A stretch of DNA of 42,338 nucleotides from the UHGV virus genome UHGV-0127092; one strand, given 5' to 3'. The translations under genes were made by a program, and so were the position numbers. Below are positions 33,862 to 34,313 of this stretch, piece after piece (positions within the stretch are counted from its first letter, which is position 1; each line of letters starts with the position of its first letter). The stretch comes from a virus. Under the pieces are notes generated by a model, which was not told the DNA's origin, did no database searches, and saw only the letters and a program-made list of their open reading frames with translations.

Positions 33862-33983
33862 TACCCACTCCTTTTTGATGTTTTTTTCAGCATAGCACGT
33901 ACTGCACAAATCCATAACAGAACTAAATTAACCAATAAATCATAACCTTAATAACCAATGGCAAAATAATTAACCAACGGTTA

Positions 33984-34012
33984 TTGACTGAAAATAACCA
34001 TTAGTTAATAAT
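33984..34012 (+). promoter_or_regulatory. Candidate pL-like early-left promoter (TTGACT-17-AATAAT) within a TTAACC-rich operator region
   Basis: -35 at 33984-33989, -10 at about 34007-34012; flanking TAACC/GGTTA half-sites (for example TTAACCAACGGTTA) resemble the OR half-sites. Confidence 0.4.
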
Positions 34013-34076
34013 CAGCTCATCGAAACGAAACATCGACAGCTGAGCGAAGTTAGCCAGCAGCGGACAGCAAGTCGCC

Positions 34077-34089
34077 TGCTTTTTAACAA
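34077..34089 (+). promoter_or_regulatory. boxA-like antitermination element TGCTTTTTAACAA
   Basis: One mismatch to the rrn boxA consensus TGCTCTTTAACAA; about 60 nt downstream of the pL-like promoter in a roughly 290-nt leader. Confidence 0.35.
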
Positions 34090-34313
34090 CATGCAAAGTC
34101 GGAACAGCACTCAGTAATCCTGTTTAGACCCCAACGTACAAATTCGGCGCAGCACCGGGCGCGATCCGGTCGGTGTGAGGCTACCCCCTCGCGAGAGCGA
34201 TAAAGGCGTGGGAACGGGCAACACTGGCGGGATGAGAGGTGCGAAGCGCAAACAGATTTATTCCAGTCCATTCGAAGTTGAGTGGGCTGGGCTGAATCAC
34301 AAGAGGATTTTTT

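Follow-up and report, generated by a model that had tools for sequence, protein, structure and literature searches.

A conserved folded RNA joined to an rrn-type boxA in the early-left leader of a phi80-like lambdoid prophage

The virus genome UHGV-0127092, a stretch of 42,338 nucleotides (nt) referred to here as the window, carries between positions 33,916 and 34,313 a segment that an earlier note had described as an early-left control region, with a pL-like promoter, a boxA of the ribosomal RNA operon (rrn) type, a long untranslated leader and a divergent small gene. That description is borne out, since pL, its operators and the rrn-type boxA are all present and are homologous to the OL, pL and nutL of phage phi80. 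The leader between them and the first early gene is not spacer, however, but a conserved folded RNA joined to the boxA. The region is part of a phi80-like lambdoid prophage with an immunity specificity of its own. The features on which the following argument depends are these.

33929..34007: left operator (OL) cluster, made of TAACC-N3-GGTTA-type palindromes and TAACC half-sites
33971-33983: operator OL2, TAACCAACGGTTA, abutting the -35 element
33995-34007: operator OL1, TAACCATTAGTTA, overlapping the first base of the -10 element
33984..34012, plus strand: pL promoter, -35 TTGACT (33984-33989), 17-nt spacer, -10 AATAAT (34007-34012), read from the sequence and from the alignment with phi80 pL
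34019..34058, plus strand: 5' leader module (+1 module), AUCGAAACGAAACAUCGACAGCUGAGCGAAGUUAGCCAGC, identical or near-identical in phages of at least four immunity types
34060..34075, plus strand: P0 hairpin, GCG(G)AC-AGCAA-GUCGC, ending one base before boxA
34077..34089, plus strand: boxA, TGCTTTTTAACAA (RNA UGCUUUUUAACAA), the 'nutL boxA' of the phi80 annotation
34090..34233, plus strand: structured core domain P2-P6, defined by covariation and a covariance model
34239..34298, plus strand: 3' extension of the window's leader class, with GUGCGAAGCGCAAAC conserved at 34239-34253, followed by P7
34263-34290, plus strand: P7 hairpin, with an outer 4-bp helix at 34255-34258/34295-34298
34301-34307, plus strand: Shine-Dalgarno sequence AAGAGGA
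34314-34526, plus strand: open reading frame (ORF) of 70 amino acids (aa) with the basic patch LPKKRQKPRKQAIKEAQ, family phrog_5305
35473..35498, plus strand: intrinsic terminator GACCCGCTCCGGCGGGTT-TTTTAT (hairpin 35473-35490) at the end of the third early-left gene

The leader measures ~295 nt from the inferred transcription start (~34019) to the ATG at 34314. The earlier note had given it as roughly 290 nt without a convincing ORF; both the length and the lack of a credible ORF stand, whereas the impression of a featureless leader does not. The lone plus-strand ORF of at least 30 aa that starts inside it (34175-34357, GTG) spans covarying helices, and coding potential was rejected because the covariation is of the RNA type.

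The boxA agrees in 12 of 13 bases with what we take to be the rrn boxA, TGCTCTTTAACAA (consensus UGCUCUUUAACAA), in line with the one mismatch given in the earlier note, and is the only near-rrn boxA in the window. The next-best sites anywhere in the window differ by at least two bases from the window's own 13-mer, and sites within three mismatches occur at chance level (15, against 15.07 expected). Position 5 of boxA is C in 40 and U in 22 of 64 distinct members of the family, and the exact TGCTCTTTAACAA is found in members from APSE and from phages encoding Shiga toxin 2a (Stx2a). When the family was searched with a motif of the folded domain that ignores boxA, 151 matches were returned, one of them spurious; all 150 true elements carried a boxA at the same place, with a single substitution in 11 copies. 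Since elements found without the help of boxA invariably carry it, domain and boxA form one unit.

The helices of the domain in the window, all on the plus strand, are as follows.

34119-34124/34226-34231: P2
34130-34132/34216-34218: P3
34135-34138/34143-34146: P4, boxB-like, with a U.U mismatch at 34137/34144
34147-34148/34180-34181: P5a
34152-34158/34170-34176: P5b
34160-34161/34167-34168: P5c, loop CGAUC
34187-34189/34204-34206: P6 outer
34190-34192/34197-34199: P6 inner, loop GAGA

Covariation carries the case for this fold. RNAalifold applied to MAFFT alignments of 32 and 40 diverse members gave compensatory double changes in 15 of 24 predicted pairs. The refined structure of 30 pairs (P2, P3, P4, P5a-c and P6) is 93.4% paired on an unbiased alignment, compared with at most 44% when the partners are slid; both sides have changed in 19 of the pairs, and the observed value was reached by none of 500 shuffles. 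On the model-fitted alignment of 64 distinct sequences, pairing amounts to 95.7%. A covariance model derived from the refined structure, R1, gives a single hit in the window at 34074-34233 (163.7 bits, E 1.7e-31, next best 10 bits), and one hit per true locus elsewhere. Unpaired bases in the junction are invariant, namely the loop CGAUC and GAA.GGG.AACACUGG. Further downstream, P7 shows compensatory changes in 10 of 17 predicted pairs among 14 diverse sequences; it lies directly 5' of the ribosome-binding site and is found before unrelated first genes. Single-sequence folding z-scores (-2.1 for the window's leader, -1.75 for phi80) are uninformative by themselves. No alternative terminator/anti-terminator pairing was seen next to the domain. 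Rfam, searched at gathering thresholds over the whole window and by E-value over 33900-34600, returned no relevant family, only chance microRNA hits and, away from the leader, isrJ and isrB.

Long-range pairing of the linker that follows boxA with the 3' flank (helix P1) was considered as well. It is convincing to the eye in two classes, as CAGCGUCAAU/GUUGGCGCUG and GCAUACCUA/UAGGUAUGC, and was left out of the model because it is by-eye only and its halves are mismatched in phage HK225. That phage (L002 3057-3249 in our numbering of loci) is chimeric within the element, with a phi80-class linker in the 5' half and a window-class 3' flank; the apparent P1 is unable to form there, and the phage is viable nonetheless.

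The element is common to well over 150 temperate phages, Shiga-toxin phages included. A sensitive blastn search with the leader found 127 phage records, among them phages of Klebsiella, Providencia and Edwardsiella, Hamiltonella's APSE phages and ~100 Stx2a phages. Pattern scans added more than 120 further viral contigs and 25 further species-representative genomes, the latter from Enterobacter, Kosakonia, Kluyvera, Citrobacter, Huaxiibacter, Escherichia, Xenorhabdus, Arsenophonus and Phlomobacter. It is also present in 233 of 5426 complete E. coli genomes, O104:H4 and O157:H7 strains among them, and none of the E. coli matches listed overlaps an annotated feature; most of the phage records listed likewise leave it unannotated. 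The copy in E. coli O19:H7 730V1 is identical to that of the window. Seventeen chance pattern matches in unrelated phyla were not recovered by the covariance model at E ≤ 0.01.

In every annotated phage examined, the early-left operon opens with the element, which follows closely on cI or on the accessory genes next to it. Of 114 distinct upstream regions, 64 have a promoter-like site within 150 nt; among 342 controls the number is 29. It occurs once per phage. A nutR-like second copy was not found in the window by pattern search, by blastn-short with the leader or by the unfiltered covariance model; pattern search revealed no second boxA-like site in the right operon, and the covariance model had no hit in the right arm of phi80.

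The +1 module is nearly invariant, showing no variation that could test structure, and five phages with four operator types are identical from the inferred +1 on. It heads at least four leader cassettes (besides the window, L003 3338-3383, L007 and L193-L264): of 161 loci with the module, 97 carry the present element (type A leaders), 39 an RNA resembling the putL of phage HK639 (type B, put-like), 21 an ENT1-type leader, which has the boxA-like UGCUCAUUAAGAA, and 4 some other sequence. Hairpins other than the window's P0 occupy its place in relatives (read by eye), with GCGUUUAU-GA-AUAAACGC in APSE, GAGAC-GGAACACA-GUCUC in Edno5 and one in P13374 too.

The cassette nature of the leader is clearest from two loci, L170 (Enterobacter, with this element) and L195 (with the HK639-type RNA), which are identical up- and downstream of the exchanged segment and share P7, a mini-ORF and a terminator. 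In the HK639 record, the putL-like RNA is annotated as an antiterminator. L170 has the same leader as the window, followed by the 10-codon mini-ORF, the terminator and the window's third gene, with the 70-aa and 62-aa genes absent. The mini-ORF itself, MRRQSYIAHK (L170 6799-6880, and L195), stands right before the intrinsic terminator, separates the leader from the first long gene in some relatives, and occurs behind type A and put-like leaders alike.

Terminators are a regular feature downstream. Among 54 non-redundant loci, 52 have an intrinsic terminator on the same strand within 2.5 kb (median distance 511 nt), and only 13 have one on the opposite strand. The one at 35473 in the window is a candidate antitermination target, and terminators of the same type (ACCCGCTCCGGCGGGT-T5) lie 3' of the element in many relatives. 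At ~20 loci, by a crude scan, no ORF with a Shine-Dalgarno sequence precedes the terminator; two of these, L170 and the Stx2a phage P13374 of E. coli O104:H4, were checked by eye. In P13374 (L010 2356-2830) the pL-like promoter, the boxA element and a strong intrinsic terminator (AGACGC-GCCA-GCGTCT-T7, L010 2781-2796) all come before the first early-left ORF. The 'antitermination' protein annotated in P13374 (ORF26, 224 aa) lacks an arginine-rich N terminus and by eye does not resemble N.

The genes that follow the element are extremely diverse, with zero to three small genes before the terminator depending on the phage. In the window, KKRQKPRKQAIKEAQ lies close to the N-terminal end of the 70-aa protein, whose basic patch is lysine-rich (three R and four K in 14 residues) and falls short of our self-set criterion for an arginine-rich motif (ARM). 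The earlier note had hinted at an antiterminator role by proposing readthrough assays with and without this protein. Such a role is unlikely because the family is tiny (9 homologous clusters only), its homologs are found behind put-like leaders as well (10 behind type A, 2 behind type B, 1 other), and the gene is absent in L170, where the leader is the same. The 70-aa gene is a shuffled cassette gene and no conserved partner of the RNA. The 70-aa, 65-aa and phi80 N proteins and the zinc-ribbon-like 62-aa protein are all of 'unknown function' in PHROGs, and none has a match above cut-off in Pfam or NCBIfam. A hairpin-bearing linker, (T)CCCGCATCAGCGGGTAAC plus ACAGAGGGTAAG plus start codon, precedes successive early-left genes of the window (34549-34567 and 34771-34789) and also lies 5' of phi80 N (L001 3706-3723). 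The exact 18-mer is present in 58 of 190 loci, on the same strand and downstream of the leader in the cases inspected; it looks like a cassette junction or a translation-initiation module for shuffled early genes.

We now turn to the surroundings of the leader. Between 33671 and 34232 the window is ~84-86% identical to phi80 (megablast), and the phi80 record annotates the matched segment with three CI operators, the -35 and -10 of pL, a 'nutL boxA' and a 'nutL core' (GenBank entries for this region of phi80 are JX871397, M11919 and X13065). To HK225, window 34018-34700 is 95% identical (megablast). In GenBank M11919, the equivalent 278 bp of phi80 are labelled 'nutL regulatory signal' and followed by a 98-aa 'N' gene and tL1. 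The TTGACT-17-AATAAT promoter proposed by the earlier note aligns with the annotated phi80 pL and is the top sigma-70 match (10 of 12) in 33400-42338. Promoter-like hits in that interval show no excess (5 observed, 8.6 expected by chance), and the call is therefore based on the homology to the annotated phi80 elements together with the operator geometry. Conservation among phages of differing immunity begins at ~34018. The TAACC-rich operator cluster in the earlier note likewise proved real: OL1 and OL2 are 24 bp apart, additional TAACC half-sites lie at 33929-33964, and related sites stand beside cI and cro, where an inverted copy of the OL1 site is found (31160-31179 versus 33995-34014, 90% complementary). 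In phi80 the three annotated CI operators occupy the same positions and differ in sequence, so that the immunity of the window differs from that of phi80. The neighbouring features are listed below.

30581-30802, minus strand: cII-like gene
30843-31088, minus strand: cro
31110-31122, 31134-31146 and 31167-31179: right operators (OR), TAAC-N5-GTTA, between cro and cI, the reference set for OL
31173-31940, plus strand: cI, a LexA/S24-type repressor gene facing cro
32120-33528: two accessory genes after cI, ending in terminators at 33535-33554 and 33644-33659
33664-33861, minus strand: divergent small gene, 65 aa, with Shine-Dalgarno AAGGAG at 33868-33873
33889-33897, minus strand: extended -10 of the divergent gene, TGcTATGCT (TGnTATGCT)

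The two accessory genes encode a 159-aa DUF6932 protein and a 310-aa phrog_6603 protein. They occupy the slot of rex in lambda and of gene 40A in phi80, and may be lysogen-expressed accessory or defence genes. Beyond them come the small minus-strand gene, the control region and the plus-strand early-left operon. The divergent gene had been noted before; its product belongs to phrog_3975 and has 510 homologous protein clusters, every one named 'hypothetical', and HK639_46 is a homolog. Gene and TGnTATGCT motif are kept in phi80 and HK225. The extended -10 lies ~30-60 bp from the outermost TAACC half-sites. The OL operators may regulate this gene.

Further observations were made elsewhere in the window. 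The small RNA families isrJ and isrB, both Hfq-binding, have minus-strand matches at 23517-23590 (65.1 bits, Rfam gathering threshold) and 36409-36506 (36.5 bits, barely over the cut-off), the second being antisense within the early-left operon. In addition, five direct repeats of ~21 nt (TTACCTGATTCGGGTAA...) at 30036-30151 lie within the ORF 29644-30498 (minus strand), in a layout that recalls the iterons of phi80 gene 15 and the lambda O origin.

The reading we favour, with moderate confidence, is that the element is a cis-acting antitermination RNA that recruits Nus factors and probably does without the 70-aa protein. That Nus factors bind, that the element is active in antitermination in the window's phage and that no phage protein is needed are what we infer. 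BoxA recruits NusB and NusE at rrn and nut. Once the repressor CI leaves the operators, transcription from pL would start at ~34019 and run through the modules of the leader, that is, the 5' module, P0 with the rrn-type boxA, the ~145-nt P2-P6 domain, and P7 before the first ribosome-binding site. The nascent boxA would bind host NusB-NusE (S10), NusA and NusG would join, and a modified elongation complex would assemble, much as happens at rrn operons and lambda nut. Remaining tethered to the polymerase, the folded domain would stabilise or complete the complex; it may contact polymerase or Nus factors or, in some lineages, bind an arginine-rich phage peptide at P4. The polymerase so modified would resist Rho in the long untranslated leader and read through the intrinsic terminator(s) after the interchangeable cassette genes (in the window, 35473-35490), which would let the genes for recombination and integration be expressed. 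That a phage protein is not generally required is suggested by the rrn-like order, the consensus boxA, the single copy, the terminators that come ahead of any ORF in some relatives and the swap with a put-like RNA. Between the two options named in the earlier note, a divergent nut site or a different antitermination mechanism, the second is better supported.

Several points weigh against this account. First, the phi80 records name a 98-aa 'N' just downstream of the element; should phi80 really need N, independence from proteins would not hold in that phage at least. Homologs of phi80 N, sought by tblastn at loci with the +1 module, lie behind 6 of 74 type A leaders and behind none of 41 other leaders. 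Second, a 65-aa protein starting MNSKKRQERRRKAWIAERR, with an N-like look, is encoded in the Providencia branch (L012, L042, L096), and a conserved 43-44-aa ORF with ..N.VRRLRWLRK..LKRN.. lies in the early-left operon of the Xenorhabdus/APSE branch and related elements (L152, L153, L156, L160, L165, L166 and L174 in Xenorhabdus, L091, and L009, APSE-1). In APSE-1 this ORF is ~157 nt past the element and is unannotated in the record. Clear ARM proteins are confined to these two branches, and such proteins are consistent with contacts of the N/boxB kind at P4. Given the phi80 N annotation and these proteins, P4 may be a peptide-binding hairpin in some lineages. Third, positional equivalence with a put-like RNA is suggestive of equal function and is not proof of it, the domain may have a different function, in which case boxA would do no more than shield the transcript from Rho, and the terminator and ORF censuses were made with simple in-house scripts.

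The best surviving alternative, which we regard as unlikely, is a classical N-dependent nut site, in which boxA, and P4 as boxB, recruit an N-like protein from the first gene (here the 70-aa gene) while the remaining fold presents both. The 'reducer' hairpin at the nut sites of phage H-19B offers a parallel for a fold that merely presents boxA and boxB. The names nutL and N in the phi80 records speak for such a site, as do the small, covarying P4 hairpin with its A-rich loop, the arginine-rich N-like proteins of the two branches just named and the KKRQKPRKQAIKEAQ of the 70-aa protein. Yet neither the window nor phi80 has a nutR copy, and P4 and first gene do not travel together: identical P4 hairpins precede unrelated first genes, a phi80 N homolog being present at only 6 of the 31 loci with the exact phi80 P4, whereas HK225 and the window share the 70-aa protein and differ in P4. 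Moreover, the 70-aa gene is also found behind put-like leaders and is missing in L170, several loci have a terminator before any ORF, and in the window P4 is mismatched and ~45 nt from boxA. A conserved N protein accompanying the element was not found among the loci compared. A published study of mEp phages concerns an N-like system unrelated to the element.

Slightly less probable still, in our estimate, is that the RNA has some other job, such as riboswitch-like sensing, control of translation or stability of the first cistron, provision of an RNase III site or of a stable small RNA, with boxA serving only against Rho. Multi-helix junctions with invariant unpaired bases are typical of RNAs that bind ligands or proteins, P7 stands immediately before the ribosome-binding site, and boxA is able to protect untranslated transcripts. 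On the other hand, alternative terminator/anti-terminator pairing was not seen beside the domain, a terminator follows regularly downstream, and the element is swapped with an annotated antiterminator RNA in the same context. The first genes differ completely, which makes it unlikely that one particular cistron is being controlled. It is very improbable that the conservation results from recombination only, the leader being a linker shared where modules meet and having no function as an RNA: the leader does lie at the exact border between immunity-specific operators and shuffled early genes and its first 60 nt are nearly identical in distant hosts, but members down to ~70% identity (APSE, Xenorhabdus, Providencia, Edwardsiella) keep the helices with 19-20 compensated pairs, and these compensatory changes contradict a linker for 34074-34298, leaving it as a possible explanation for the invariant 5' module (34019-34058).

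Returning to the antitermination RNA, we would tentatively go one step further, at somewhat below even confidence, and add the element to HK022 put and the HK639 type as a proposed third class of phage antiterminator RNA, self-sufficient in that it would use the host's rrn machinery through a consensus boxA, hold that machinery on the polymerase by means of its folded domain and need no phage protein. If true, phi80 'N' and the other first-gene products would be dispensable cassette genes, and the same switch would govern the early-left genes of the Stx2a phages of O104:H4 and O157:H7 and of the APSE phages of aphid symbionts. The element would also give occasion to look at the phi80 'N' gene afresh. 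The element heads the early-left operon of medically important Stx2a prophages, and in P13374 the terminator precedes every early-left gene. A defined RNA of ~160 nt with a covariation-tested fold also offers a way to ask how Nus factors are captured without N.

How the element relates to known systems can be summarised as follows. By sequence and model it is homologous to the named and poorly characterised nutL of phi80, which has the operators in the same positions, pL, the same boxA (TGCTTTTTAACAA) and P2-P6 in full (over 214 nt the identity is 83.6%; R1 gives phi80 166 bits, so that both copies exceed 160 bits). The differences lie in P4, the 'nutL core', which is CACG-UAAA-CGUG in phi80 and CGUA-CAAA-UUCG, with a mismatch, in the window; in P7, which phi80 lacks, its sequence past 34232 being different; and in the first gene, the 70-aa ORF being unrelated to the 98-aa 'N'. 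In the phi80 annotation, all that is marked is a boxA of 9 nt and a core of 12 nt; a folded domain is absent from it. The element was overlooked even though the sequence of its phi80 copy, with a label, has been available since the 1980s. Full-text literature searches, with the primary phi80 and HK639 papers outside their coverage, found no description of the RNA, and the folded, boxA-linked family appears to be undescribed.

Lambda-type nut sites consist of boxA and boxB and are bound by N, NusA, NusB, NusE and NusG. With lambda nut the element shares a promoter-proximal boxA RNA, an operon interrupted by terminators and a small hairpin with an A-rich loop 3' of boxA. Unlike lambda nut, its boxA is of the rrn type, the hairpin is embedded in a ~145-nt multi-helix junction, and it is single-copy, with no nutR. 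Lambda boxB is a 5-bp stem with a pentaloop at most ~10 nt from boxA, whereas P4 starts 46 nt past boxA, with a stem of 4 bp that includes the U.U mismatch, in a junction that P2/P3 close. The earlier note's remark that no obvious lambda-type boxB is present is incomplete: the family does have a boxB-like hairpin with an A-rich loop, P4, which in the window carries the mismatch.

The rrn leader offers the closest match to the boxA itself, and both have a hairpin immediately 5' of it (P0, read by eye). Antitermination at rrn employs boxB-boxA-boxC with NusA, NusB, NusE, NusG, SuhB and S4, and needs no phage protein. Unlike the rrn leader, the window has no identified boxC, and the element drives a phage early operon; we know of no rrn counterpart to the downstream structured domain.

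Finally, the element resembles HK022 put and the HK639 putL-like RNAs in that a leader RNA which folds and acts in cis is placed directly after pL, with terminators following. Put RNA acts on RNA polymerase independently of proteins, through the beta-prime zinc-binding domain. The HK639-type RNA has the same +1 module and differs in having no boxA and no sequence or model similarity to the element: R1 gave no hit in the HK639 locus with the annotated RNA, in ENT1, in lambda 33-39.5 kb or in a 22-30 kb stretch of HK022, which may not include put. HK022 put is presumably without boxA as well. The element is longer than the put-type RNAs and is present in one copy per phage. Textbooks know early-operon antitermination in two versions, one relying on N protein together with nut RNA, the other on put RNA by itself; what the element suggests is a hybrid of wide occurrence that couples a large folded RNA firmly to a boxA of the ribosomal type.

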